Assembly (NCBI RefSeq): GCF_964204645.1
Contig: NC_134028.1
Coordinates: 10,788,001-10,852,000, forward strand
Reading direction: 5' to 3'
Length of the DNA: 64,000 bases
Source: Tubulanus polymorphus
Lineage: Eukaryota > Animalia > Nemertea
The translations under genes were made by a program, and so were the position numbers. The notes beneath the pieces were generated by a model. That model made no database searches and was not told where the DNA came from. It saw nothing but the letters and a program-made list of their open reading frames with translations. Shown piece after piece: positions 11,468-64,000 of this stretch (its first letter is position 1; each line of letters starts with the position of its first letter).

Positions 11468-41763
<30,296 letters not shown>

Positions 41764-42184
41764 ATTGAATTTTTAAACGGTATCGCGATCGCACTCTATC
41801 CCAATATTGTTGTCAATATTTGGTAATGAATGATGAATAGGCACTATTAATCTCAATCAACACTACACAACACAACACAACAAGCAAATTCAAGTCCTGC
41901 CACGTCCCCAGTCAAAGAAAAAATAATTCAAATCAATTTATTGAGTGACAGGAATATCAATTCAAAGAAAAATACTTTATTGACAATATTAACCGGAAAT
42001 TCAAATTCATTTATTTTTTTACGTGATATTTACAAGTCCATGATATATAAATTTGGCGATATTTAAGTATCAAAATTTGGCTATTTAGCACAAAGTATTA
42101 TTTTGTATTTTCATTTTGAAGTTTACAGTGGAGGAAAATGAGTTTCGTTGCCCAGTAGAGCATATGCGATTATTTCTGAACAAT

Positions 42185-45100
42185 CATTATGAGTTTTCCG
42201 GTTTGCTCGGCTACCCGTACTGGCGGGGTAGTCTAGATAGGCAAATGAAAGCTCCGGTTTGCTGAACTACCCCTCTTTGCGGGGATGCGGTATGATGTTT
42301 GATCTGACAGTTTCAAGTGGTTAATGGGTGTTTCAAGTGCTTACAACGATGCTTATTACTTAATGTGGTACATGGTGGTTTAAAAAAAGATTTCATAATG
42401 ATACGCTCAAAGTATAGGCCTACCGCGTGGGCTTCGTAGAAAGACCACTGCCTGTGGCCTTCCCAAATTTTAATTGTTCTGTCCGATTTGGTTTCGTCCA
42501 ATTGAAAGACTGCCTTTTCCAGTTAGGGCATTTTTGGATCACATCACTCAGGAAATGACTTACGCTTTTGGGCCCTTTCGTCGGTCCCACGTGTTTCATT
42601 TGAGCTATAGACCACATGGTGACACCATGATGGTCAGAAACTGACCAATTGAGATATTCCCGAGTCTGAACACCTGACTGCGAATTTCGGAAATTTATCA
42701 AGTCATGTTTGTTTTCAAACTACCGAGGTATCATCATTGCAAATTCATAAATTGACCATCACTGACCACCACTGACCAATTCAAACTTCTCGAATATGAG
42801 TTCGATATACCGCGTTATGGTGTCAAACTAGAAAGGATTCGCCATAGATATTGAGAATTCATAAATTTACCATCACTGACCACCACTGACCAATTCAAAC
42901 TTCTCGAATATGAGAACGATATACTGCGTTATGGTGTCAAACTAGAAAGGATTCGCCATTGAAAATTCATGAATTGACCATCACTGACCACCACTGACCA
43001 ATTGAAACCTCTCGAATGTAAGAAAGATATACCGGTACCGCATTTGGTGTGAAACTAGAAAGCATTTTCCCCATTAGAATTCATAAATTGACCACCATCA
43101 CTGACCACCACTGCCCAAGTGAAACTTCTCGAATATCGTCGAATTCGAAATTGGTTGTCGTCGTATTGTTATTTCTAGAGACCAGCAGTATGTTTTGCTA
43201 CTGTTTCTGAATGGCGTTGACATGATGGAAATATATTACTCCTAAATAGGTTACACATCTGGATCACAGCACCTCACTTGCCGCAGTGCGTAATTTTGAC
43301 TGCATAGTAATGCTAATACATAAACTTTTTTACTACTTGACTCAAAGCTTGACGCGAATCATCTGAACAGTACTGCGTTTGAAAACGAATAGAAAATGTT
43401 TGCGAGAAGCACCTGCAAATAAGTTATGATAAGATTTAATCTATGGTTAATCGATGCTTAAAAAAACAATTAAATCACAGGCAAGATGACTAACAACCGT
43501 CTTTCAACCAATCAGCGCGATGCCAATTAATTAAATCATTAAACGCATTAGGCTCCTAATATTTGTAATCATTTGTCGTTCTTTAAACTTGGCCACTTTT
43601 GTTTCAGAAAACCGCGTACTATAGTGGTCACCAAGGCATTAAAAAAGTTTTGAAAATTCGATGGTAACGATTTGTCCGTCAAAAAACTGTTTCGTTAATA
43701 TTTCAAGTTTTTTTTTAAACTCTTGTACAGAATTCACTATATGAAAAGTGTTCATAGGAATTGAAATTCGGTGTGATATCAGTCACCTGTTACCCCTTTT
43801 TCATTGTCAGTTCTTTATTGCACTATCATGCGCTCTTCTAAAATAGAAAAGAACACGTGTGTTTCGTTATAAACAAGGTTAAATTCCAAACGCACATGAA
43901 ATATCACACAATATACACATCTAGCATTTTCTCTAACTAGGCCCTTTCCAAATGGCAATTGTTTAGTTTTTTAACGGCCGACATTCAGAAGCACCTAAAA
44001 ACCAGTGGTAGCGCTTGAGATTTTCAGTGTAGGTCACATCTCACATCGACTCGGCTCGCAGTCGGTTCGTTTAATGGGAACACATCTGGTTGACACTAGT
44101 TTCACAGTTGACGAAATCAGAAAACTTTTTTTCAAATGCCTTTGATAACATCTTAAACATAGTATTCTTCTTAATTACATTTCGTTGATTCCATAGATAT
44201 GTTTTTATGAAAATTGCTCCAGTTATAACGGATTCAAACATACATGTGAAATCATTATTTTCAAAATATTCAATTTTCTCCGCTTTTGAAGAAATTCTGA
44301 CACAATATCATCTCCACTCGACACATGATTTTACTTCGGCGCCTTTAAGGGAGTGTCCCTTAAAGTTGAGTTCTTACTTAGTCAAACAAGGAGATATGCC
44401 TGATTCCTTTTTAAAATTTAGATTTCGACAGATATCATCAATTTACTAGAAAGGGACAGCAGCGTTCGGTCATCCACGAAAAATACCTAAAATGCAGTCC
44501 TAGGGTTATGGAAAAACAGGACACGAAACATACAGAAAAATCCTTTGTTTGGTTGACTGAAATTATTATTGAACTCTTAAATAGCGACATTCAGAGAAAC
44601 AAAAACATAAGAATATAATCTCGCCCACCCGTTAAAAAACATAACGTAATGATATGAGGCCATGTGTCATCTTTAATTGAAATCACATTATATTCATTCT
44701 CATGCGAGGACGGGTCTCCAAATTCATAGGATAAGGAGAATAATGGTTTGAATGATGAATACAACTGATAAAGCGCCAATTTCACTGATTCTTATATAAA
44801 TGCTCAAAGGCGCTTTACAGTAATCGAGTAAACAGGGCGTTTTTAGGAGTCTTTTGAATTTGAATTCAAATCGGGTGTTCATGACGACTATAGGCGCTTT
44901 AAAGCCGCGGACACACTGGGTGATTTCGTCGGCGACGAAATCGGCAAACAGCGCCGCTTATTTTGAAACGACCAGCTGCTAGCGCCACCTTTAATAAATC
45001 AAAGAGCCGTGATTGGCTGGTTAATACGGCGCTCGAGGCGACTGATCGCCGTACCCGGACACACTGGGCGATTCTGTCGCCGGCGACGAAATCGCCGGCG

Positions 45101-48100
45101 ACAGAATCCAACATGTTGGATTCGGGCGATTTCGTCGGCCGACTAAATCGCCGAAGGCGATTGCCCGGACACACTGGGCGATTTTACCGGCGATTTCGTC
45201 GGGCGACGAAATCGGGCGACCAAATCGCCCAGTGTGTCCGGGCCATTACGAAACTGAATCTTTGTAAATCGATTTAAGTTTCACGTTTACGGCACGCGGT
45301 TTAGTGAATCCGATTTGGTAAATCAACTCGTTTATGGACGCGGTTTAGTAAATTGATTTATTAAATCGACTAACTTGCTCGGCGAGCAAGTTAGTGGCGA
45401 TTTAGTCAGTGAAATCCAACATGGCGTCCTCTTCGACCGCGGGCTAAAGACATCTATTGCAGACCATCATCTATCAATAATTCGGTCACCATTGACGCCC
45501 ATTTTCTTTCGAATCGCGACCTATAGATTAATAAATTGATTCGACTCATTTACGAAAAACGATTCGATTTACTAATCCTTACGTTTTCCAACATCGAATC
45601 GGATTTAGCTAAACCGAATCAGATTCAATTTCGTAAAAGCGCCTTATAATTGAGCATTCTATAGAGCTGGAGCAAGAAACGTGTGGGATCGTCCGCCAAG
45701 GTATCGCTAAGGAGTCAGTCCGTGGTGGCTTTTGAAAGCGACGACCGCATATGAATGCATTGATTGAATGACATCTCAAAAGTCAGATTATATAAAATTA
45801 AACATGATATACGGATAGGTTCTTCAAATTAGGCCTATACTGGTAAAAATGAAATGACCCAATATGTGATATAAATGTTCAATCAAAAAGTAGAAAGTGA
45901 ATCCGTAATTCAGTATGGTAGGCCTATTGTTACAACAGCAAACACTCAAATTCAATCCTTTGTTGAATTGGAAGCCAGTGTAGATGAGCAAGTATCGTGG
46001 TCCCTGATTTTTGTTATCGTAATAATTCAAGCCACGTGATTTTGAACTGTTCAACAAGTTGGAGTTTGTGTAAAGATGAATGTGTTTGAAATGGAGTGGA
46101 CTTCAGATATTACTGTTTGCATGCCTATGTCTATTACTTAATCTTTTTACTAATCATAGAAAATTGTGGTAAAATATTTGACTCGACGGTTGGTTTTAGA
46201 TTGTATCTCTCCAAGCCAGAGGTAATCACGGATATCGGACTACAAAAAAATTCCTTGTGTAAAGCTCAACTTTGTAAATTCCTGGAAAAGCTCGCCTCGG
46301 ATATTTCAATAATGATTAAACATTAATTTTCCCAACGAAACACCTAAACAACCAATGTACGCTTGCTTTAAGTTTACCAATGCACTATCGTTGCTTTTTC
46401 TAGCTATTTGTACTGTTTGCCGTAAAAAGATTGCATCCTCTATTACAGGATTTAAGGATACAACTCTAAAACCAGTTAGTTTAAATTAAACATTATACAA
46501 TATGATACATGACCAAATACACTGTTAATATGAAAAAGATCCAATATGTACACATTTCAAATCTCAAACCAAGTTTTATCATTAGAAAATAACGACACAA
46601 CGTTCGATCGTTCACTAGAGATCATCTTTTTGAATTTGTACACAGTGAATTTTCGTATCGTATTATGGTATTATCAATTCTCCGCATTTGAGTGTGACTA
46701 TTCTACGAATACAAAGTTTTTTTTAGCAATGAAGTTTTAATTGTCATTTTAAATGTTAACTATCCACTGGTATGTAAACTTACTAACTTTTGGCAACTGA
46801 CCTCAAATCGTGGAATGGGCTCAGGTAGCCTGCTGATCCACTCTTTATTAATACTACTAAAGAAATATTCAGTATAAGAAGTAAAAAGTATATTAAAGTA
46901 CCATTTATCTTTATATCGCAATAATTTGTGTACGTATGATTGAAAAACGATATTCTATGGAGTCTCGTGTTACGTACTTATGATTATTGTGTATAAGATC
47001 AATAATTAGCAACCTTCCACGGATACGAAGCGGCCTAAGTTTACATCCTACCATAATTTTCTCTAAACTCTCAGCATTATATCAAGATCGGTCTTAGAAA
47101 ATATATGAAGGACGTGTTCACAGGTTAACGAGGCCAAAAATCTTCCTCAAAATTTCAAATTTTTACGAGCATGCTTTTGGTGCAGAAATAATGGATGTCC
47201 ACAAATTGCAAATTGTGTTTTCAAAGTAAACGATCCGAGTGTGGAATTGTTTCGAATTCAGGGTTCTCCCATTTACTCTCCGGTATTTTACAATGTTTCA
47301 ATAAGATACGTAAGTCGCACTTTTGTTGTGATACAGCTTTCTCTATTGGTCAGCGTTGTGATCACTTAAAATTACCCATAAGTTTGAATTCTCACTGAAC
47401 TACTACATCCCTTATAACGAATATATATTTCATATGAGGCGATTAACTTTGATGATCTGCGGTCAGTGGACAGCAGTTACGAAACATTCAAAACTACTAC
47501 ATTATCTTCCATCTATTCATTATTCATATATATGATATGATATGATATAATATCTCCTTTAGTGTTCAGTTTAAACGTCTTGAACGCAAAAGTTTGACAA
47601 GTTTCGCATAATGGTACCGATACGCACGTTCACGCGAGTGAAATGTGCACGTTACAGGCTCAAATGCGCACGTTACAATTACAAATCGAAACGTTGTTCG
47701 TTCAAAACCCGATGTGAAAATCTTTTGCATTTAGTGGGAAATTTCAAAGTTAGCTCGCTTCCTACAATAAAAATTGGACAAGACTTTTAAAACGACACAT
47801 TTAATAAGAGTAGTACTGACGAAGGATTCAGGCAATACCCCGTGTTATTTCTAAAAACATTTAACCGGTAATTAGACAGTACTGGTGTAGCTTGTACAGG
47901 TATAAGAGTTGTTATATTTACGTTCAGACCGAATGAAATTATTTGATACGAGACACGACTAAGTTGTGTCCGAAACAGATAAATATAGCTATGTGGTCAG
48001 TATTGGTCAAGATTTGGTCACTTGAATAGTTGTTAGATGAAAGCCCACACCATTTCTAATTATTTGACACCAAACACGACTGTGTTGCTTCTAGAATAAA

Positions 48101-48859
48101 CAAATTACTTTAAGGTCAGTATTGGTAAAATATTGGTCAGTTCAATAGTTGTTAGATCATAGCCCGCACCGTATCTAGTAGCTCGACGCCCAAACACGAT
48201 TTTATTGCTTTACTAAACATATAAATTACATATGGTGGGTTCTAGTTAGTGGTAACTGGTCAGTACTGGTCAAGCATTGGTCAGTTAAACAATTTTTAGT
48301 TTAATGTCCACATTATATCTAGTTATTTGACACCAAATAACTTAATTGTTTGCAAAACAGATAATTTACTATATAGCCAGTACTGGTCATGCATTGGTCA
48401 GTTGATAGACCAAGGTCCACGCCACGAGTTATTTGATACTAAACATTATTGTGTCGTTTCGGAAAATTTATCTGTTGGGCAATTTGTGGTCAGCCCTGGT
48501 TCGTTTGTTCTTATTTTGCGGGCATTTTATCTCGAACCACCGAAAGACTGAATTACTAATTAATTCAACAGATCATTAATTAATGGAAATGAAGATCAGT
48601 GTTAACTAAGTCCTTAGTCTGAATAAAATGTATGTGGTATTATATGGGTGCTATGGTGCTGTACACCGAACTGTAACTTTTTATTTTCACTACTACCGTA
48701 ATTGACTATGATGTTTTCAAGTGGTCTTAAGTACCGCTAATAGCCGAAAGTCGTTGATTTATGTGAAATTTACACACAGCGCCACCCGTTGATAGTGAAA
48801 CTAACCCGAGCAATACGGGTGTTAAATAGATACGCTAGCAAACCGGCATTCTCATAATG
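42185..48859 (+). mobile_element. 6.7-kb non-coding TIR element (CATTATGAG termini; possibly CACTA/EnSpm-like), copy 1
   Basis: TIR CATTATGAGTTTTCCGGTTTGCT / AGCAAACCGGCATTCTCATAATG. TGACCA-rich ~92-bp repeats lie near the left end and TGGTCA motifs near the right end. No TSD seen, superfamily uncertain. Confidence 0.75.
44892..45644. mobile_element. Harbinger-like MITE with a second Harbinger-like MITE (44903-45245) nested in its left TIR
   Basis: Outer TIR AGGCGCTTTTACGAAA.TGAATCT with TAT flanks. Inner TIR ...CGGACACACTGGG with TAA/TTA flanks. The empty site is seen in the inverted copy near 55290. Confidence 0.8.
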
Positions 48860-49183
48860 TGACAAAGCTGACAATCGGAAAGACAGCTATCAAAATACAT
48901 GGTCATCTGTTCACGAATGAGGGCGTCAAGGCAGACCAGTCGAAGATATGTAAGATGCCTGCACCCACAATATCAAAGGTATCAAACAGTTGTGGGGTAT
49001 GGTGCAGGGCTCGCTTTCTGCCGAACCTGGCAAGTGACCTCGAACCCATTCGTGCACTGACCAGAAATGATCCCCAATGAAATTGGTCGGTCGAGTGTGA
49101 AGCTGCGTTCGAAAAAGTCAAGCAAAGCCTGACGACCACAACTGTATTGGCGTACTTCGACCCAGCTAAACCGGTGTACTGGA
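48860..49183 (+). pseudogene. Ty3/Gypsy pol fragment (end of RT, thumb/connection)
   Basis: GHLFTNEGVKADQSK..MPAPT...RFLPNLASDLEPIRALTR..*NWSVECEAAFEKVKQSLTTTTVLAYFDPAKPV, degenerate. Confidence 0.85.
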
Positions 49184-52100
49184 CATTATGAGAATGCCGG
49201 TTTGCTAGCGTATCTATTTAACACCCGTATTGCTCGGGTTAGTTTTACTATCAACGGGTGGCGCTGTATGTAAATTTCACATAAATCAACGACTTTCGGC
49301 TATTAGCGGTACTTAAGACACTTGAAAACATCACATTATGAGTTTTCCGGTTTGCTCGGCTAGGCAAATGAAAGCTCCGGTTTGCTGAACTACCCCTCTT
49401 TGCGGGGATGCGGTATGATGTTTGATCTGGCAGTTTCAAGTGGTTAATGGCTGTTTCAAGTGCTTACAACGATGCTTATTTCTTCGTTGTACATGGTGGT
49501 TTAAAAAAAGATTTCATAATGATACGCTCACCGCGTGGGCTTCGTAGAAACACCACTACCTGTGACCTTCCCAAATTTTAAGTGTCCTGTCCGATTTGGT
49601 TTCATCCAATTGAGAGACTGCCTTTTCCAGTTAGGGCATTTTTGGATCACGTCACTCCAGGAAATGACTTAACGCTTTTGGGCCCCTTCGTCCGTTCCAC
49701 ATGTTTCATTTGAGCTATAGACCACAATGGTGACACCATGATGGTCAGTAACTGACCAATTGAGATGTCCTCGAGTCTGACCACTTGACTTCGAATTCCG
49801 GAAATTTATCATGTAATGTTTGTTTTCAAACTACTACGGAATCGTCATTGCAAATTCATTACTGACCATCACTGACCACCAATGACCAATTCAAACTTCT
49901 CGAATATGAAAACGATATACCGCGTTATGGTGTCAAACTAGAAAGGATTCGCCATTGAAAATTAATAAATTGACCATCACTGACCACCACTGACCAATTG
50001 AAACTTCTCGAATATGAAAACGATATACCGCGTTATGGTGTCAAACTAGAAAGGATTCGCCATTGAAAATTAATAAATTGACCATCACTGACCACCACTG
50101 ACCAATTGAAACTTCTTGAAAGAACGATATACCGGTACCGCATTTGGTGTGAAACTAGATAGGATTCGCCATTAAAATTCATAAATTGACCATCACTGAC
50201 CTTCACTGACCAATTGAAATTTCTTGAAAGAACGATATACCGGTACCGCATTTGATGTGAAACTTGAAAGGATTCGCCAATGAAAATTCATAAATTGACC
50301 ATCACTGACCACCACTGACCAATTGAAACTTCTTGAAAGAACGATATACCGGTACCGCATTTGGTGCGAAACTAGAAAGGATTCGCCTTTAAAATTCATA
50401 AATTGACCATCACTGACCACCACTGACCAAGTGAAACTTCTCAAATATCGTGGTCGAATTCGAAAAAGCTTGTCGTCGTATTGCTATTTCTAGAAACCAG
50501 CAGAAAGTTTTGCTACTGTTTTTGAATGGCGTTGACATGATGGAAATTTATTACCCATAAATGGGTTACACATCTGGATCACAGCACCTCACTTGCCGCA
50601 GTGCGTTATTTTCACTGCATAGTAATGCTAATACATAAACTTTTTTACTACTTGACTCGAATCATCTGAACAGTACAGCGTTTGAAAACTCAACGAATAG
50701 AAAATGTTTGCGGGATGCGCCTACAAATAAGTTATAATAAGATTAATTAATCGATGCATGAAAAACAATTAAATCACAAGGTGACTAACACCCGTCTTTC
50801 AACCAATCTGCGCGATACCAATTAATTAAATCATTAAACGCATTGGGTTCCTAATATTTGAAATCATGTGATACAATAGTTGTTCTTTAGACTTGGCCAC
50901 TTTCATTTCAGAAAACCGCGTACTAGACCAGTGGTCACCGAGGCATTAACCATTCCTTCAAGTTTTGAAAATTCGATGGTAACGCGGATTCTTCGCCTCT
51001 AAAATCTGTTTCGTTAATAGTTTTCTTTATGTGAAAAGTGTTCATAGGAATTGAAATTTGGAGTGATATCAGTCACAGCTGTAACCCTTTTTCATTGTCA
51101 GTTCTTTTTTGGAATTCAAGTAGATTAGTGAAAATATCAATGATGAAGTTCACTTATTATATCAAGTACCGTTTTTACTGTCGCATGCGAATCGAAACAA
51201 AAAGATCTATCCAACTGCATATCTTCGGGTATAAACTGTGATATCCTTCAGTATGTTATGAATATCTTTAAAAATTTGTGTTCTAGTATAATACCCGAAG
51301 GTTTAACTATCGGACACATAAAAGATTCGCCATAATCAAAGTTTTTAAGAAAATCTTTCTTCGAGAAAGAAAGATCTTTAAAAGAACGATTGGCGTCAAA
51401 CTAATCCATAATGGACTGTTGTGAATTTATTGAATAATCCACCTGAGAAATTTAAAGATTTCGAAGCGAAATTTATTCATATAAATCAAAAATGCATGAA
51501 TAACTTGACGTTATTTGCGGGTCTCATGAAACACTTTCGTGCGCTCTTTTTAAATCTAAAATAGCATAAATACATGCGTGTTTCGTTATAAACAAGGTTA
51601 AATTCCAAACGCACATGAAATATGGAGCCTGTATCACACGATATACACATCTTGAATTTTCTCTAACTACGTAGGCCCTTTCCAAATGGGAATTGTTCAG
51701 TTTTTTAACGGCCGACATTCAGAGGCACCTAAAAAACCGGTTGTATAGCACTTGAGATTTTCAGTGTAGGGCACATCTCACATCGACTCGGCTCGCGGTC
51801 GGTGGTTTAATGGGAACACATCTGGTTGTTACTAGTTTAACAGTTGACGAATTCAGAAAACTTTTTTCAAATGTCTTTGATAACTTTTTAAACATAGTAT
51901 TCTTCTTAATTACATTTCGCTGATTCCATAGATATTTTTTCATGAAAATTGCTCCAGTTATAACGGATTTAAACATACATGTAAAATTATTATTTTCAAA
52001 ATATTCAATTTTCTCCGATTTTGAAGAAATCAACAAGTTGGAGTTTGTGTAGAGATGAATGAGTTTAAAATGGAGTGGATTTTAGATAATACAGTTTGAA

Positions 52101-55100
52101 TGTCTATTACTCAATCTTTTTATTGATCATAAAAAATTGTGGTAAAATATTTGACTCAAGGGTTGGTTTTAGATTGTATCTCTCCACGCCAGAGGTAATC
52201 ACGGATATTGGACTACACAAAATTCCTTGTGTACAGCTCAACTTTTTAAATCCCTGGAAAAGCTCGCCACGGATATCAGTAATTTTCCCACAAATTCCCC
52301 CCTTCGAAAAACCTAAACAACCAATGTGCGCTTGCTCTAAGTTTGCCATCGCACTATTGTTACCTTTTCTAGCTATTTGCACTAGCTGTTTGTAGCAAAT
52401 AGATTGCATCCTCTATTACAGGAGTAAAGGATACAGCTCTGGGACCCGTTTCTCAAAAGATAGTTTAAATTAACCATCATCCAATATGATACATGACTAA
52501 ATACACTGAAAAAGATCAACTATGTACACATTTCAAATTTCAAACCAAGTTTTATCATTAGAAAATTACGACACAATGTTCGATCTCTCACTAGAGATAA
52601 TCTTTTTGAATTTGTACACTGACTTTTCGTCTCGTATTATCGTATTTTCAATTCTCTGCTTTTGAGTCAACAAGTACAAAGTATAAGACAAGGACTATTA
52701 GTTAAACACTAATCTTCATTTTCAGCAATTAACGATCTGGTGAATTAATTAGTGATTCGGTCTTTCGGTGGTTCGAGATAAAATGCCCGCAAAATAAGAA
52801 CCTAACGAACCAGGGCTGACCACAAATTGCCCAACAGATAAATTTTCGAAACGACACAATCCAATCATGTTTGGTAACAAATGTGGCGTGGACCATGGTC
52901 TTTTAACTGACCAATGCATGACCAGTACTGACCATATAGTAAATTATTTGTTTGCAAACAATTAAGTTGTTTGGTGTCAAATAACTAGATATGATGTGGG
53001 CATTAATCTAAAAATTGTTTAACTGACCAATGCTTGACCAGTACTGACCAGTTACCAGTGCTAACCAGAACCCCCATAAGTAATTTATATGTTTAGTGAA
53101 TCCTTCGTTGGTACTACTAGCTCTTACATTTAAATTTGTCGCTTGAAAAAGTCTTGTCCGATTTTTGTTGTAGGTAGCGAGCTAACTTTGAAATTCCGCT
53201 AAAATGCATAAGATTTTTACGTAGGGTTTCGAACGAACAACGTTTCCATTTGTAATTGTAACGTGCGCATTTGAGCCTGTAACGTGCACATTTCACTCGC
53301 GTGAACGTGCGTATCGGTACCAACATGCGAGACTTGTCAAACTTTTACGATCAAGACTTTAAACTGAACAAAGAAGATATCATATCATATTATATATACA
53401 TGAATAGATGGAATGATAATGTAGTAGTTTTAAATGTTTCATAGCTGCTGTCCACTGACCACAGATCAAAGCTAATTGCCTGATATGAAATATATTTTTG
53501 TTATAGAGATGTAGTAGATCAGTGAGAATTCAAACTTATGGTTAATTTTGAGTGATCACAACGCTAACCAATAGAGAAAGCTGTAAGTCCTAAGAAAATA
53601 TGCATTAAGTTTAACATATCTTTCAATATAATGATGAAGTATTCAACTGGCCATCACAACAATAGTTTGACTTATCTTATTGAAAAAACCGGAGTGTTAA
53701 TGGGAAAACCTTGAATTCGAAACAATTCCACACTCAATCGTTTACTTTGAAAACACAATTTGCATTTTGTGGACATGTATTTTTTTCTGCACCAAAAGCA
53801 TGAAGTATATTATCTTTGCTTGTAAAAATTTGAAATTTTGGGGAAGATTTTTGGCCTCGTTAACCTGTGAACACGTCCTTCGTATATTTTCTAAGACCGA
53901 CCCTTGAAATAATGCTGAGAGTTCCGAGGATAATTTTGGTAGGATGTAAACTTAGGCTGCTTCGTATCCGTGGAGGGTTGCTAATACACAATAATCATAA
54001 GTACCATGAGATTCGATAGAATATCGTTTTTCAATCATACGTACACGAATTATCGCGATATAAAGATAAATAATATGTTCATATACTTTTTACGTCTTAT
54101 ACTGTATATTTCTTTAGTAGTATAAATAAAGAGTGGATCAGCAGGCCACCTGAGACTATTCCACGATCTAAGGTCAGTTGCCAAAAGTTAGTAAGTTTAC
54201 CAGTGGATAGTTAACATTTATAATGACGATTAAATTTTCATTGCTAAAATAACTTTTTACTTGTTGACTCAAAAGCGGAGAATTGAAAATACGATAATAC
54301 GATACGAAAACTCAGTGTACAAATTCAAAAAGATTATCTCTAGTGAGAGATCGAACGTTGTGTCGTAATTTTCTAATGATAAAACATGGTTTGAAATTTG
54401 AAATGTGTACACAGTTGATCTTTTTCAATGTATTTGGTCATGTATCATATTGGATGATGGTTAATTTAAACTATCTTTTGAGAAACGGGTCCCAGAGCTG
54501 TATCCTTTACTCCTGTAATAGAGGATGCAATCTATTTGCGACAAACAGCTAGTGCAAATAGCTAGAAAAGGTAACAATAGTGCATTGGCAAACTTAGAGC
54601 AAGCGTACATTGGTTGTTTAGGTTTTTCGAAGGGGAGAATTTGTGGGAAAATTAATCATTACTGAGATATATCCGTGGCGAGCTTTTCCAGGGATTTAAA
54701 AAGTTGAGCTGTACACAAGGAATTTTGTGTAGTCCAATATCCGTGATTACCTCTGGCGTGGAGAGATACAATCTAAAACCAACCCTAGAGTCAAATATTT
54801 TACCACAATTTTTTATGATTAATAAAAAGATTGAGTAATAGACATTCAAACAGTATTATCTAAATTCCACTCCATTTTAAACTCATTTGGCCATCTCTTC
54901 ACAAACTCCAACTTGTTGAACAGTCCACATTAAAATTAGGGACCACTATTCTTGCTCATCTACACTGGCTACCAATCTAACAAAGGATAAAATTTGAGTG
55001 TTTGATGTTATAACAATATCAGACTGAAGTATGCATTCGGTTTCTACTTTTTAATTGAACATTTATATCACATATTGGGCATCATTTTTACCAGTATATA

Positions 55101-58100
55101 TTGAATAACCTATCCATATATCATCTTCAATTTTATAAAATCTGACTTTTGAGATGTCATTCAATCAATGCATTCACATGCGGTCGTCGCTTTCAATAGC
55201 CACCACGGACTGGCTCCTTATTATTTCTTTGGTGATACCATTGGCGGACGATCCCACACGTTTCTTGCTCCAGCCCTAGAATGCTCAATATTCGTCATGA
55301 ACCCCGATTTGAGTTTAAATTCAAAATACTCCTAAAACACACCTGTTAACTAGATTACTCTAAAACACCTTTATGTGCAAGAATCAGTGAAATTGGCGCT
55401 TTATCAGTTGTATTCATCATTCGTACCCACGAATCTCGTATCGTAACCTATTAATGTGGAGACCCATCCTCGTAAAGAGAATGAATAGGCTCTGTTGCGT
55501 TCATATCATTTGATATGAGGCTACGTGTCATCTTCAATTGAAATCACGTTGTTTTTTTAAAGGGTGGGCGAGAATATATTCTTATGTTTTTGTTTCTCTG
55601 AATGTTGCTATTTAAGAGTTCAATAATTTCAGTCTACCAAACAAAGGATTTTCCGTATGTTTCGTGACATGTTTTTCCATAACCCTAGGAGAGCATTTTA
55701 GGTATTTTTTGCGGATGACCGAAAGCTGCTGTCCCTTTCTAGTAATTTGATGATATCCGTCGAAATCTAAATTCTAAAAAGGAATTAGGCATATCTTCTT
55801 TATTGACTAAATATGAACTCAACAACAAGTGACACTCCCTTCAAAGGCGCCGAAGTAAAATCATGTGTCGAGTGGAGATGATATTGTGTCAGAATTTCTT
55901 CAAAATCGGAGAAAATTTAATATTTTAAAAATAATCATTTTACATGTATGTTTAAATCCGTTATAACTGGAGCAATTTTCATGAAAAAATATCTATGGAA
56001 TCAGCGAAATGTAATTAAGAGGAATACTATGTTTAAAAAGTTATCAAAGACATTTGAAAAAAGTTTTCTGAATTCGTCAACTGTTAAACTAGTAACAACC
56101 AGATGTGTTCCCATTAAACCACCGACCGCGAGCCGAGTCGATGTGAGATGTGCCCTACACTGAAAATCTCAAGTGCTATACAACCGGTTTTTTAGGTGCC
56201 TCTGAATGTCGGCCGTTAAAAAAACTGAACAATTCCCATTTGGAAAGGGCCTACGTAGTTAGAGAAAATTCAAGATGTGTATATCGTGTGATACAGACTC
56301 CATATTTCATGCGCGTTTGGAATTTAACCTTGTTTATAACGAAACACGCATGTATTTGTGCTATTTTAGATTTAAAAAGAGCGCACGAAAGTGTTTCATG
56401 AGACCCGCAAATAACGTCAAGTTATTTATGCATTTTTGATTTATATGAATAAATTTCGCTTCGAAATCTTAAAATTTCTCAGGTGGATAATTCAATAAAT
56501 TCACAACAGTCCATTATGGATTAGTTTGACGCCAATCGTTCTTTTAAAGATCATTCTTTCTCGAAGAAAGATTTTCTTAAAAACTTTGACTATGGCGAAT
56601 CTTTTATGTGTCCGATAGTTAAACCTTCGGGTATTATACTAGAACACAAATTTAAACAAAGATATTCATAACATACTGAAGGATATCACAGGTTATACCC
56701 GAACATATGCAGTTGGATAGATCTTTTTGTTTCGACTCGCATGCGACAGTAAAAACGGTACTTGATATAATAAGTGAACTTCATCATTGATATTTTAACT
56801 AATCTACTTGAATTCCAAAAAAGAACTGACAATGAAAAAGGGTTACAGCTGTGACTGATATCGCTCCAAATTTCAATTCCTATGAACACTTTTAATATAA
56901 AGAAAACTATTAACGAAACAGTTTTTATAAGCGAAGAATCCGCGTTACCATCGAATTTTCAAAACTTGAAGGAATGGTTAATGCCTCGGTGACCACTGGT
57001 CTAGTACGCGGTTTTCTGAAATGAAAGTGGCCAAGTCTAAAGAACAACTATTGTATCACATGATTTCAAATATTAGGAACCCAATGCGATAATGATTTAA
57101 TTAATTGGTATCGCGCAGATTGGTTGAAAGACGGGTGTTAGTCACCTTGTGATTTAATTGTTTTTCATGCATCGATTAATTAATCTTATTATAACTTATT
57201 TGTAGGCGCATCCCGCAAACATTTTCTATTCGTTGAGTTTTCAAACGCAGTACTGTTCAGATGATTCGAGTCAAGTAGTAAAAAAGTTTATGTATTAGCA
57301 TTACTATGCAGTGAAAATAACGCACTGCGGCAAGTGAGGTGCTGTGATCCAGATGTGTAACCCATTTATGGGTAATAAATTTCCATCATGTCAACGCCAT
57401 TCAAAAACAGTAGCAAAACTTTCTGCTGGTTTCTAGAAATAGCAATACGACGACAAACACTTTCGAATTCGACCACGATATTTGAGAAGTTTCACTGGTG
57501 GTCAGTGATGGTCAATTTATGAATTTTAATGGCGAATCCTTTCTAGTTTCACACCAAAAGCGGTACCGGTATATCGTTCTTTCAAGAAGTTTCAATTGGT
57601 CAGTGGTGGTCAGTGATGGTCAATTTATGAATTTTCAATGGCGAATCCTTTCTAGTTTGACACCATAACGCGGTATATCGTTTTCATATTCGAGAAGTTT
57701 GAATTGGTCATTGGTGGTCAGTGATGGTCAGTGATGAATTTGCAATGATGATTCCTTAGAGGTTTGAAAACAAACATTACATGATAAATTTCCGAAATTC
57801 GAAGTCAAGTGGTCAGACTCGGGGATATCTCAATTGGTCAGTTACTGACCATCATGGTGTCACCATTGTGGTCTATAGCTCAAATGAAACATGTGGAACC
57901 GACGAAGGGGCCCAAAAGCGTTAAGTCATTTCCTGGAGTGACGTGATCCAAAAATGCCCTAACTGGAAAAGGCAGTCTCTCAATTGGATGAAACCAAATC
58001 GGACAGGACAATTAAAATTTGGGAAGGCCACACTTTCTACGAAGCCCACGCGGTGAGCGTATTATTATGAAATCTTTTTTTAAACCACCATGTACCACGA

Positions 58101-58276
58101 AGTAATAAGCATCGTTGTAAGCACTTGAAACAGCCATTAACCACTTGAAACTGTCAGATCAAACATCATACCGCATCCCCGCAAAGAGGGGTGGTTCAGC
58201 AAACCGGAGTTTTCATTAGCCTCTCTAGACTACCCCGCCAGTACGGGTAGCCGAGCAAACCGGAAAACTCATAATG
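49184..58276 (-). mobile_element. Inverted copy 2 of the CATTATGAG element, containing a partial direct copy (49334-~52680)
   Basis: Both termini are present (49184 and 58276). 49334-52680 is the reverse complement of ~54255-58276 apart from a ~1-kb deletion at ~52030. Confidence 0.85.
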
Positions 58277-58455
58277 AAGTGGACAGCAGCAAGGATCGGG
58301 CTCGGAGCCGTCTTACTACAAGACAAACATCCCGTTGAATATGGCTCTCGTAGCCTAACCTCTGCCGAACGTAATTGGGCTCAAATCGAGAAGGAGATGC
58401 TGTCGATTGTATTTGCGTTGGAATGATTCGACCAGTATACGTGTGGCCGGGTGGT
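58277..58455 (+). pseudogene. Ty3/Gypsy RNase H fragment continuing 48860-49183
   Basis: VDSSKD.LGAVLLQDKHPVEYGSRSLTSAERNWAQIEKEMLSIVFALE*FDQYTCGR. Confidence 0.88.
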
Positions 58456-58460
58456 TTTTC

Positions 58461-59032
58461 TGTAAGGTGCTGCCATCTACAGTGCTCTATATTATGATTT
58501 TTGGCGGCAACCGGTCAGTTCGAGATTGGTCATCGATCAGGTGATATCTCCGGATTTGCAATATCGTAATTAAAAGTAATTATTTATACTGATATCTCTG
58601 TTGTCGCAGGTGAGGAAGTTTTTGTTACGAAATGTTTGTTGATGATTTAGAATGTGAAAATAATTGTATTTGAGATTTGTAGATATTTGTTGAAATAATG
58701 TAAGGCGCAGTTCGAGATTGTTCATCGATCAGGTGATATCTCCGGATTTGCAATATCGTAATTAAAAGTGATTATTTATACTGATATCTCTGTTGTCGCA
58801 GGTCTCTCTTTGTTTCTGCGTCTGTGGTTAGAAGTCTCTGTCGAGCAGTTGGTCGCCCGGCATCCGCATCTCCAGGACCCCAATTTAACTGTGACTCAGG
58901 GGCATCTTCACCCGTCAAGGGATTCGAACCCACTACGCTAAAGCTGTTCCCCGAACCCCGTGACCTCACGAGTCGTTGGAGCCGTTACTGTGAAAATGTA
59001 ATCATTACTTTCCACCACTAGACAGTGGAGAC
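58461..59032. mobile_element. LTR-like segment with internal ~95-bp direct duplication
   Basis: TGTAAGG...GACA ends. 58518-58610 is repeated at 58709-58802. No TSD verified. Confidence 0.35.
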
Positions 59033-59195
59033 ATCTGTTATGTTGTATGTTAACTAATGTTGGACCATATAATAAAGTTTAGTTTTAGTTGTGATATCTA
59101 AGAGAAAGTTCTTGTGTGTTAACTCTCTTGAAGCCTCCAGGATAATCATTTTCTTTAGTCGAAAGACTGGGATTGGATTCCACGATCTGCTCAAC

Positions 59196-59720
59196 ATGTC
59201 CCCTGTAACAGGTTATGGGCCCAGTGGCAGAACAAGGGCACCCATATTTGATGGGGACGAGAATAAGTTCGAACTGTGGTTGACTAAATTTGAAGGTTAC
59301 ATGCGGATTATTAAATTACATAAGATAATCGATGGGACTACTAATATTACTGGAGAAGAACTTGTAAACAAAAAAGCAGAAGCGTACGCCGAATTAGTCC
59401 AATGTTTGGACGACAGATCCCTGGCATTAGTCATGCGCGAAACGAAGAATGATGGCCAGAAAGGACTTGAATTGTTAAAGGAACATTATATGTCAAAAGG
59501 AAAACCAAAGATCATAACATTATATAGCCAGCTAACATCGCTGATGAAAAGCCCAACAGAATATTTAACGGATTATATGTTGCGGGCTGAGACCGCGGTA
59601 GCGTTGTTAAAATCTGCGGGAGAAACGGTCAGTGATAGCCTACTTGTGGCAATGACAATAAAAGGACTTCCAGAGGCATTTAATGCATTTTCAACCGTGA
59701 TGACGCAAATAGATGGTGAG
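59196..59720 (+). pseudogene. Ty1/Copia gag N-terminal fragment, 3'-truncated
   Basis: MSPVTGYGPSG...IFDGDENKFELWLTKFEGYM...AYAELVQCLDDRSLALVMRE..NDG.K.L..LKEHY..KGKPKIITLY..LTSL...DYMLRAETA...LK.AGETVSDSLLVAM.IKGLP is typical metazoan Copia gag. GGTTATGGGCCCAG lies at 59211-59224. Confidence 0.85.
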
Positions 59721-59808
59721 TTGAGTAATTGGAAGATGTGGGTTTCATACCAGAGTACTAGAGTACTAAACACCACTCATCACCACAAGTAATTTTTTTT
59801 CCTAATAA

Positions 59809-62800
59809 ATGGGAGAGAGTGAGTACCAGACAGAAAACAATAATGTTAATAAAAATCAATATTATTGCCAATATTGTAAAAAATACATCGATAAATCTAA
59901 ACATGAAAAATCTTCAAATCATATAAAAAATGTTATAGATTTTGAAACTCCAGAAAATTCCAATGAAAGAAAAGAACGATTAGAAAATATGAATGTGGAT
60001 GAAATAAAATGTGAAGTTTGTAATGAATTTATAGTAAAAAGGAATTATAATAGACATCTCGAATCACAAAAACACCATCAAAATTTGAGTAATAATGTTT
60101 TAGGAAAAGATTATTTTGATGATAAACCTCAACAAGTTCAAAAACTAAATCCATTTCAAATAAACCTTACATGGAAAATGTTAGAAATTATATTGATTCA
60201 CTAGAAATAAAAGATACAATTGAAATATTAGAAACATAACGTAGTAAAATTGGTCCTGCAGTTATTGTATTTAGATTTTTTTAAAGGTACAACAATAGAA
60301 GATTATAGTAAATTTAATGAAAAAATAGAAAAAACACTAGATTTGATAACAGATGTTGAATATCCAAAAATTAGTATCTCTGGGAAAGTAAGTTTTTTAA
60401 AGTCAGAAGATAAAATGGATTATAATATTCAAACACTCTCTGAAGAAATAATTTCAAAAACACAAATAAAAGAGAAGTTAGAAAAAATATTTAATGAATT
60501 TTAACGTCATATTGAAGAAAGATATTTTGAGGGTTCTGGCTTAACATTGAATGAAATTATATTTTTAGATTTAAATGTTTATAATACAAAAAGAAATAAA
60601 ACATCAAAAAGTAATAAAATGTTTAAAAAGGATTCAAACTTTACAACAGAAAAGGAGGATATTTAAGGATCATCTTATATTAAATTACCATTTACAACAA
60701 AAGCAGTAATAAATGTTCAAAATGAAGATAATAAATGTTTTCTGTGTGCAATTATTAGTTGCTTACATCCAACAGAAGATATTACACATAGTTTTAGAAT
60801 AACAAATTACCGGAAATATGAAACATTATATAGAATTGATCAATATCCAGTAACTATAAAAATGATTTCTAAAATAGAAAAAGTTAATAATTTAGAAATA
60901 AATGTATTCGAATTAATGCAATTACCAAAGACAAAAGGTGAAAATATTAAAGATTATACATTGGAAGCTTTATATTTAACAGAATATTATGATGATGAAA
61001 ATGCTATAGATTTGTTATATTACAAAAAAGATGAAAATGAACATTATATGTGGTTAAAACAAATTGATTTATTCTTTAGAACAGAAAGTGATCATCATCG
61101 TAAAATTTATCTATGTAGAAAATGTTTATCTAAATTAATGACTGAGAATACATTATTAAAACATAAAGAATTATGTGATAATAAAGATTTTTGTGAATTA
61201 ATAATGCCAACAGAAAAAGATTATAAATTGAAATTTACTAATCATAAATTTAAGAATATTGTTCCATTTGTAATTTATGGGGATTTTGAATCGTTGAATA
61301 AAGAATTAACTGATCAAGATAGAAAAGAAATATATAACAAAAAGCAATTATCAAAATCAATGGATAAAGGAAATGAATTAAATTAAGACACAATACAAGA
61401 CCCACCAATTATAAATACAATTAAAAAAGTTCATCAAAGAGCTGCTGCTTATGGAATTTATATAAAATCAAATTATCCTGATTTATATGAAAGTCAATAT
61501 ATTTCTTTTAGAGGTGAGGATGTAGTTAATGATTTTTGTAACAAAATGATTGAATTAGAAAGTGATTTTGCAAAATTATTAAACAAAAATAAAACAATAG
61601 TTATGACAAAAGAAGATGAAATTGATTTTCATTATGCAACTCATTGTTGTAACTGTGAAAAACGTTTTTATTCATTTGATAAAAAAGTTAGAGATCATGA
61701 TCATTTAAATTCAAAATATCGTGGAGCTGCTCATGAAGATTGCAATTTACAAGAAAGTTAATTTCGTACCAATATTATTTCATAATTTATCAGGCTATGA
61801 TACCCATCTATTTATAAAACAATTATCGGGAAAATTGAGCGCAATTAATCAAGAAATAGAAGAATATAATGCTATAAATGGTGTAAATGTAAGAAAATAT
61901 GATTTTAAACTATTAGCTAAAACATCTGAAAATTATATTTCATTTCAATTTGGTTGCATTAGATTTTTAGATTCTTATAGATTTCTAGCAAGTTTATTAG
62001 ATAATTTATCAAAAAGTTTAGTTGATAATGATTTTGTTATAACTCGATATTATTATCCAAATAAACAAGATTTTAATTTATTGAGATCAATTAAAAGAGG
62101 AGTATGTGAAGTGTTTAATAGAACATTAAATATTTGGAACCATTTTAAGATGAAAAATCATGGTGAATTAGTAGATTTATATTTAAAATCAGATGTTATG
62201 ATATTGGCTGACATATTTGAAAAATTTAGAGAAGTTAATTTGAATCATTTTAATGTTGATCCTTGTTATTGCTACTCTAGTCCTGGTTTAACCTGGCAAT
62301 GTGGTTTAAAATACACAAATGTAGAATTAGATTTATTAAAAGAACCAGACATGGTTTTATTATTTGAAAAATCAATTAGAGGTGGAATTAGTGGTGTTAT
62401 GGGAGATAGATATTTTAAAGCAAATGATGAATATAAATTATCATATATTGACGCCAATAATTTATATGGTCGGGCAATGATGCAACATCAACCATATAAA
62501 AATTTTATATTAACAGAAGTTGAAAATGATGATAAAACTGATTGGGAAAGCGCAATTGCGAGTTTAAAAGATGAAGCACCAATTGGTTATTTCTTTGTAG
62601 TTGATTTAGAATATCCTGAAAATATAAAGTTTAAAACAAGAAACTTACCTTATTGCCCAGAACATTTAACTGTAGATGATAGTTATTTAAGTGAATACCA
62701 GAAGAAAATAAAACCGAAAGATCATGTTTTACAGAAAAATTAATACTTACTCAAAATAATAAATACAATATCGTTCATTATAGAATATTAAAATTTTATC

Positions 62801-64000
62801 TAAAACAAGGAATGAAATTAAAGAAAGTACATGGATATATTGAATTTAATCAATCGAAGTGGTTAGAAAAATATATAGATTTCAATACTCAACAGAGAAC
62901 CATATCAAAAACAGATTTTGAAAAAGATTTCTTCAAATTAATGAACAATAGTTTTTATGGTAAAACATGCGAACATATTAGAAATAGAAATGATATTGAA
63001 TTAGTAAATAATTCTAAAAGATTAAGACATTTACAATCAAGTCCTAGACATTTAGGAAATAAAAGATTTGAAGATTATTTAACAGCAGTTAAATTAAAAA
63101 GAACGTCAATGAAATTTAATAAACCTATATTCATTGGTTCAACTGTTTTAGAAGTATCAAAATTATTAATGTATGATTTTTATTATAATGTTTTACAACC
63201 ACTTTTTGGGGAAAAGCATATTGAAATATTATATTTTGATTCTGTAACAGCTGACACCCCAATATTATTAAAATGTAATGATAAAATATTAATTAGAAGA
63301 ATTTCAGAAATAATTCCAAAACAAAATGAATGTTATATTTCATATGGTGAAAAAGAATTAATACAAATAAATGGATTAATGGATGTTTGGAAAAGAAATG
63401 TATGGAAAAAATTAAAGAATATTATTAGACATAAAACAAATAAGAAAATCTATAGAGTTAGAACTAAATTAGGATTTGTAGATGTTACAGAAGATCATAG
63501 TTTAATTAAACGAAATGGCGATGAAATAAAACCAACTGATATAAAAATTGGAGATGAATTATTACATAAAAGATTTTTCCAAAGAATGAATCATATGTCA
63601 TTTGATGCAATTATTGATAATATTTATAATATAGAACCTGAAACATTAGAAGAAAAAGAATATTTTATCAAAGGATTTTTCATGGGTGATGGTTCAGCAG
63701 GTTTGTATAATTATGTTTGGGGTAATAAATATTGTTGGTATTTATGCAATCAAGACTTAAAATTATTAGAAAGAATTAAGAAATTCTGTGAAGAAGTATA
63801 TCCAAATAAAACATTTAAAATCATGGATGTTATGAAATCATCAGCAGTTTATAGAATACTTGTAAATAATCCTAAAGATTTTGCTATAAAATATAATGAT
63901 GAATTCTATATTCATGCAATAGTGAAAAGTAATACTTCAACAAAAGAAAGGATAGTACCAGATTATGTATTAAATGCAAAAAATAATTTAAGAAAGTGGT
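59809..64000 (+). pseudogene. Polinton/Maverick (adintovirus-like) protein-primed family B DNA polymerase, degenerate, interrupted by an intein; runs off the window
   Basis: Motifs in order: zinc fingers; EGSG, GSSYIKLP, NEDNKCF; ExoI YGDFES (~61276); endonuclease VII-like C..C...VRDHDH...YRGAAH..CN; ExoII FHNLSGYD; ExoIII YLKSDV; RGG; motif A YIDANNLYG (~62444); motif B KLMNNSFYGK (62935); motif C first half LYFD (63229-63240). Stops at 60237, 60502, 60664, 61384 and about four frameshifts. Confidence 0.92.
63241..64000 (+). mobile_element. Intein with LAGLIDADG (DOD) homing endonuclease in PolB motif C; C-terminus outside the window
   Basis: Open frame: block A SVTADTPILL; W..L..IIRHKTNKKIYRVRTKLGFVDVTEDHSL (block B TxxH, 63487-63498); IKPTDIKIGDELL; block C IKGFFMGDG (63667-63693); ends IVPDYVLNA just before the expected block E. 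Confidence 0.93.

Follow-up and report, generated by a model that had tools for sequence, protein, structure and literature searches.

Genomic context of the locus

The DNA analysed here, a single stretch of 64 kb (hereafter the window), contains a spliced GFAT gene, several kinds of repeats and, close to its end, part of a protein-primed family B DNA polymerase (PolB) that is interrupted by an intein. GFAT exons joined by GT-AG introns lie on the minus strand at 16890..20588, with further exons near 13143 and 11543, so that a gene built of short exons is found in the same window about 40 kb from the polymerase. For three of the exons the best-matching PDB chain is human GFAT1, and the exon lengths of 108, 126, 59 and 135 nt presumably match those of human GFPT1 exons. 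A preliminary description of the locus had assigned it to a metazoan genome. The basis for this assignment is the spliced gene, closest among PDB chains to human GFAT1, and not a taxonomic call; we regard an animal host as likely and not more than that because the PDB contains few eukaryotic rivals to human GFAT1.

Three long ORFs on the minus strand at 35581-38657 (105, 560 and 381 aa) look transposase-like by eye and have no Pfam match. The region 42100-58300 holds three repeat copies of about 7-9 kb, one of them inverted, which are 90-99% alike, contain internal tandem units of 108 bp and about 120 bp and show high read depth. Fragments of LTR retrotransposons lie in 58280-59790, among them an RNase H-like piece near 58300 recognised by eye. 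A copia-type gag remnant (59076..59792, plus strand; PF14223, 48.8 bits) touches the 5′ end of the polymerase and is treated here as context outside the element, and a high-copy short repeat near 58900-59000 is found directly upstream of the polymerase.

A broken Polinton-type polymerase

From 59851 onward, the window DNA aligns with the polymerase P0009 at 41-77% identity. One piece of the window polymerase scores 44.5 bits (cut-off 25.8) with PF03175, which represents protein-primed polymerases of organelles and viruses, and a weak match to Endonuclease_7 (HNH), a domain frequent among the relatives, lies within 61387-61758. The upstream part of the gene (59851..62728, plus strand) is broken by four stops (60237, 60502, 60664 and 61384) and four frame changes (near 60150, 60278, 61750 and 62720). 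This broken state was absent from the preliminary description. Judged by its sequence, the polymerase of this copy is a dead pseudogene; because it is broken, the intein here is probably the passenger of a dead copy, and there is no sign of present activity at this locus.

Genome annotations of coral, scallop, spider and leafhopper include named relatives of the polymerase, and IMG/VR relatives at 40% adjoin an integrase and an A32 ATPase in one locus (L003) and a major capsid protein in another (L002). By its PF03175 match and the neighbours of these relatives, the polymerase is of Polinton type, in agreement with what had been proposed for it. It has a weak PF03175 match together with an HNH domain and would on these features probably belong to the Beta class of PMC8502044. 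When the 21 ORFs of the IMG/VR loci L001-L003 were compared with the window, matches were obtained for their three PolBs alone, so that the comparison revealed no further Polinton gene; the element runs past the window end and has only one of its sides within the 64 kb.

An intein in polymerase motif C

The reading frame at 62695-63999 comprises 435 stop-free codons and is still open at the window end. It carries the polymerase sequences KLMNNSFYGK (motif B), KPIFIG, VLEVSKLLMY and ILYFD, followed by SVTADTP where TDS is expected, just as the preliminary description had read it. The N-extein end (62695..63240, plus strand), which includes motif B and closes with the Asp of ILYFD, the first one of motif C, is 79% identical to P0009 over 170 aa, and P0009, P0010 and P0012, whose N-exteins are 73-79% identical to that of the window, read YFDTDS without an insert.

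The stretch that had been described as starting at 63229 is real, but Ser1 of the intein lies at 63241, and 63229 is the Leu of ILYFD. From Ser1 onward, the N-terminal part of the intein (63241..64000, plus strand) is cut by the window end and comprises 253 stop-free codons, the count given before as a minimum, with a chance of about 1e-12 at local base composition. Within this part the alignment places block A with Ser1 (SVTADTP..., 63241..63279), block B (63472..63507), whose T-E-D-H with Thr83 and His86 is near-invariant among the aligned inteins, and the first LAGLIDADG-type motif, block C FIKGFFMGDG, with its acidic residue kept (63664..63693), all on the plus strand; the TEDH block and the IKGFFMGDG dodecapeptide that had been pointed out by eye are thus located. 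Further downstream, KSSAVYRI (63835..63858, plus strand) is a likely endonuclease block, which we take to be block D, and has Arg where most relatives show Lys. The window sequence ends at 64000, and blocks E, F and G as well as the TDS junction of this copy would fall past that point.

The search with Hint and LAGLIDADG profiles that the preliminary description had suggested gave a divided answer: TIGR01445 (intein_Nterm, NCBIfam) matches the window piece over its cut-off (31.5 bits versus 24.5), whereas Pfam Intein_splicing stays under its cut-off of 35.8 (24 bits, E 3.7e-5) and no LAGLIDADG family of Pfam matches the truncated piece. The best PDB sequence match of the window intein is the intein PI-PkoII (E 5.2e-5).

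Complete relatives and predicted fold

Relatives were taken from a homologue set of 120 listed matches, each of at least 763 aa. Nine of these 120 are protein-primed PolBs (pPolBs) that contain the same intein at the same D/T site, and eight of the nine inteins are complete, with a length of 337-354 aa and an end of His, Lys or Ser followed by Asn, directly before TDS. Another four listed homologues are intein-containing PolBs of the RNA-primed type; in 89 the site is empty and reads DTDS without exception. Among 481 cluster representatives, 270 have an intein match and 31 are closest to a Polinton-type intein. The open frame, the TIGR01445 and PI-PkoII matches and the complete relatives with Asn before TDS together confirm, at the level of sequence, that the insert in the window is an intein between the Asp and the Thr of polymerase motif C, and both its identity and its site had been called correctly beforehand.

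Over the last 59 residues read in the window, the nearest fragment, P0421, has 47 identities, and it then continues through GFYAADG (the second dodecapeptide motif), YVYDL and GFPLIVKN (blocks F and G) into polymerase. Because P0421 runs on in this way, a complete intein in the window's family is likely, and we infer that the intein of this copy would be complete as well. Whereas the window piece has the first dodecapeptide motif, both motifs are found in P0001, P0003, P0005 and others, and the acidic residue is kept in both motifs of the complete members inspected. PF14528 was over its cut-off in all seven complete pPolB relatives scanned. The intein of P0001 is 62% identical to that of the window, and its predicted structure has a pLDDT of 89.7. 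With this model, Foldseek returned PI-PkoII, VMA inteins, PI-PfuI, PI-SceI and I-DmoI as the top PDB folds and giant-virus DNA polymerases as the top viral folds, so that the closest complete relative is predicted to adopt an intein fold with a LAGLIDADG endonuclease.

The insert could also be a non-splicing endonuclease or a Hint-like domain fused into the polymerase, comparable to the HNH and VSR insertions of Polinton PolBs, and nuclease insertions in Polinton pPolBs are indeed known from PMC10748475. This can hardly be the case, however, as motif C itself is divided by the insert, which begins with Ser, has Asn as its last residue before Thr, is missing without a scar in P0551 and shows, in the P0001 model, the fold of full inteins.

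In a cluster of 55 members (P0404), ORFs of 362-365 aa consist of little more than one entire Polinton-type intein, preceded by about 11 residues and followed by 4-8, on contigs of 19-825 kb among the 15 listed; here, the intein may have multiplied without a full polymerase. P0006, P0015 and the cluster of P0147 are Polinton-type PolBs under bacterial names (Thiodiazotropha, Sulfurimonas and Bartonella). These labels likely reflect host contamination, the contigs being short where their length is stated.

The gene neighbourhood of an intein-bearing Polinton was sought in viral, metagenome and genome contigs and was not found there. The viral contig searches returned three empty PolBs, 80 loci of other inteins and 15 matches to the C-terminal motif, and further ones gave no match; the metagenome contig search gave 42 matches, one of them of pPolB type on a 4.2 kb contig; and the genome contig searches gave no match. 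A phage collection yielded two partial, weak matches.

Copy number and contiguity with the host genome

Four runs under one species label contain 43-48% of the sampled words from 60000-64000. In raw reads from another sample and another study under the same species label, the polymerase is covered about 330-400x and the intein 207-272x, compared with 15-38x in three neighbouring low bins. As the read depth of the element is thus 10-25 times that of these low bins, it belongs to a multicopy family in the host species. The difference in depth between intein (about 263) and extein (about 359) in one read set (X7) was not counted as a mixture of filled and empty copies, since greater divergence fits it too, and small word shares in two other read sets (X5 and X6, the latter with patchy coverage) were discounted. 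No RNA run was found among the listed read sets containing words of 60000-64000.

Several observations could be taken to mean that the PolB-intein stretch is foreign, namely that it stems from a Polinton-like virus whose host was a protist symbiont or a food organism and was joined to host DNA in the assembly. The GC content drops at 60 kb from 35-40% to 23-24%, no contig among those listed bridges host DNA and element across the join near 59770, a marine metagenome run contains a small share of the words, and relatives occur on short contigs labelled bacterial, a contamination of the kind documented in PMC8502044. A foreign origin would nevertheless be very improbable: stops and frame changes mark the copy as decayed, like integrated relics, the independent sample of the same species label covers the element at its raised depth together with flanking host repeats, the four runs of that label each contain 43-48% of the words, and clusters of close relatives have members on contigs whose 0.1-1 Mb far exceed the length of a Polinton.

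The Polinton intein clade and its origin

Three intein trees, all of them unrooted, were calculated; the first left out 12 of 134 rows (eight near-duplicates and four that were badly cut or short), and the others contained 54 and 46 rows. Polinton inteins fall into one clade in 9 of 11 rows of the 54-row tree (support 100/100) and in 12 of 13 rows of the 46-row mixture-model tree (SH-aLRT 100). All near outsiders of this clade sit in RNA-primed PolBs. In the 46-row tree, a quick mixture-model calculation, the Polinton clade and one giant-virus subclade are joined at an SH-aLRT of 87, a junction not recovered in the other two intein trees. A one-residue deletion in block G is present in 14 of 17 Polinton-type inteins versus 37 of 114 other inteins, and of the 15 viral contigs that matched this C-terminal motif, 13 carry the label of a giant-virus MAG. 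A large group of giant-virus PolB inteins (L084-L140) has a block G deletion in common (FNxGF-PLIVKN). Taken together, trees and deletion suggest that the Polinton inteins likely came from giant-virus polymerases; we infer the direction from giant virus to Polinton because giant-virus inteins are far more numerous and more widely spread.

The intein of P0011/P0146 resides in a Polinton-type PolB, has an ordinary GIGEIIVHN end and is placed among giant-virus inteins, which makes a second invasion possible. All three trees suggested two independent invasions with P0011 separate, but a single clade was not rejected (p-AU 0.26), and we do not adopt this scenario.

The known PolB inteins of giant viruses (Phycodnaviridae, Mimiviridae and Iridoviridae) have the same D/TDS insertion point, Ser1, Asn end and two dodecapeptide motifs, measure about 330-365 aa, show 36-45% identity and include a subgroup with the same block G deletion (GF-PLIVxN). 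In contrast to them, the inteins described here sit in a Polinton-type PolB that is primed by protein and not by RNA, and they form a clade of their own; the polymerase gene of the window lies, in many copies, in the nuclear genome of a likely animal host. Iridoviridae are a family with animal hosts. The archaeal polymerase inteins, with PI-PkoII as the best PDB match by both sequence and fold, share the Hint and LAGLIDADG fold; PI-PkoII differs by its length of 537 aa, its cellular archaeal host and an identity of 14% in the fold alignment. The insertion position corresponds to what we take to be labelled the pol-c site in these archaeal DNA polymerases.

Patchy presence and signs of homing

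In an extein tree built from the 170 residues that precede the site, three empty PolBs form a group with the window (100/99), whereas P0001, which has the nearest intein to that of the window, sits on a different branch. At least seven changes are needed to account for the nine filled rows among 62. P0019 is an Alpha-like PolB with a strong PF03175 match (110.9 bits). Over 60 aa its extein has no more than 35% identity to that of the window, yet its intein is from the same clade, which points to a transfer of the intein between two Polinton polymerase classes.

Filled and empty alleles coexist in three 90% clusters: P0003 (seven filled, six empty and two not reaching the site; 15 listed from 136), P0011 (filled junction in four and empty in two of ten) and P0407 (five filled and one empty; 15 listed from 121). 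Comparing filled with empty alleles, 8-10 of 24 residues differ around the site in P0003 but 1-5% elsewhere, which holds for all six empty alleles listed; three of 24 differ at the site in P0011 versus none of 1232 elsewhere; and none of 24 differ in P0407 versus six of 722 elsewhere, that is, without local divergence. Alleles within each of these comparisons are related and therefore not independent. Divergence piled up at the site would fit co-conversion from a divergent donor or the survival of cut-resistant empty alleles.

All six listed empty alleles of P0003 read DTDA or DCDS at motif C, compared with DTDS at 25 of 25 sites in two clusters in which no intein was seen. P0421 has its intein before TDA; DTDA alone is therefore not immunity, which counts against reading these alleles as escapes from cutting. 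Non-canonical motifs C (DTDA, DCDS) were noted in P0129, P0127, P0130, P0131, P0133 and P0134 and in P0396, PolBs that otherwise look intact.

Part of this pattern could have arisen if the intein had been gained once, in the ancestor of a polymerase subgroup, and had then descended vertically with repeated precise loss, the endonuclease no longer homing and the intein being tolerated. Eight of the nine filled rows belong to one 26-row extein subtree (96/92), intein and extein of several relatives are alike in their identity to the window (for instance 62% and 62% in P0001, 51% and 50% in P0003), the change counts do not separate gain from loss, and P0551 versus P0548 is a clean presence/absence pair. 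Precise loss, however, would not heap differences at the site as in P0003, nor does vertical descent agree with an intein of the same clade in P0019, and the acidic residues of both dodecapeptide motifs are kept in the complete members inspected. We consider a single gain improbable and regard it as likely that the intein clade spreads by homing; the mobile, homing element of the preliminary description is in keeping with the patchy presence, with P0019 and with the filled and empty alleles found among the relatives.

Discussion

In our main reading, to which we assign a probability of roughly 0.78, an intein with a LAGLIDADG-type motif interrupts motif C between Asp and Thr in a broken, multicopy, Polinton-type pPolB of a likely animal genome, and this intein belongs to a Polinton-specific clade that is likely derived from giant viruses and likely homing.

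Class 1 inteins splice by an acyl shift at Ser1, transfer to the +1 residue and Asn cyclisation. In an intact copy, the acyl shift at Ser1 would be aided by Thr and His of block B, and transfer to Thr+1 of TDS and Asn cyclisation would follow and rebuild YxDTDS. In the unspliced precursor, a distance of about 350 residues would separate the two catalytic Asp. Because the insert parts these residues, an intact element would need splicing, and selection would therefore maintain the splicing domain. Another Polinton copy or a co-infecting element with an empty motif C site would be the target of the two-motif endonuclease, and repair of the cut would bring in the intein plus short flanks. As the D/TDS site is common to giant-virus and Polinton polymerases, the first jump could have taken place in a co-infected cell. 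A more far-reaching version, which we put forward tentatively and hold to be doubtful, is that a giant-virus intein invaded Polintons and now acts as a gene drive in animal genomes, where it would convert empty germline-inherited copies, cross both polymerase classes and select for escape alleles of motif C (DTDA, DCDS).

Selfish nuclease domains within Polinton polymerases have been described before. The HNH, VSR and GIY-YIG insertions in replication proteins of Polintons and Polinton-like viruses (PLVs) are likewise of this kind, but they are nuclease domains elsewhere in the protein, whereas the family of the window combines a full Hint domain, splice junctions in a catalytic motif and a LAGLIDADG nuclease. 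The Beta-type adintovirus and Polinton pPolB2 polymerases (PMC8502044, PMC10748475) are similarly divergent protein-primed PolBs with weak PF03175 matches and Endonuclease_7 (HNH) in relatives; the word intein is absent from the main text of both papers. One sentence of PMC11071308 puts HNH-type insertions in Polinton pPolBs down to “intein invasions”; its likely source, PMC10748475, speaks of HNH and VSR domains.

Inteins as such are well documented in viruses. PMC5784728 catalogues 67 viral DNA-polymerase inteins, and its eukaryote-wide survey confines them to fungi, algae, some protists and giant viruses, Iridoviridae among the latter; PMC5871332 covers giant-virus PolB inteins. The word intein is absent from the main text of PMC11131425, and PMC12220804, PMC3671162 and PMC5718144 mention inteins in general terms only. 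Inteins are called absent from metazoan genomes in reviews (PMC8529194), which agrees with the earlier statement that they are essentially unknown from animal nuclear genes. Searches of the main texts in the open literature brought up no Polinton or adintovirus polymerase described as carrying a Hint-domain intein. The earlier remark that no prior description was known accordingly stands for the open main texts, but it needs narrowing, as inteins of Iridoviridae are already listed in PMC5784728; the new part is therefore the protein-primed Polinton polymerase and the place in a nuclear genome. The intein kind is known, and it seems to be the host class, protein-primed Polinton polymerases, for which no description was found.

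If true, a family of cis-inteins in animal Polinton polymerases would be an exception to the metazoan absence of inteins, and its entry route from giant viruses into Polintons would imply that a single cell once contained both. Alleles with and without the intein that are 98-99% identical could serve directly to test homing, co-conversion and the escape of target sites in an element of many copies, and the family adds new inteins and endonucleases, for which an adaptation to animal cells would be expected. Should the gene-drive version be true as well, protein splicing would be a working part of animal nuclear genomes.
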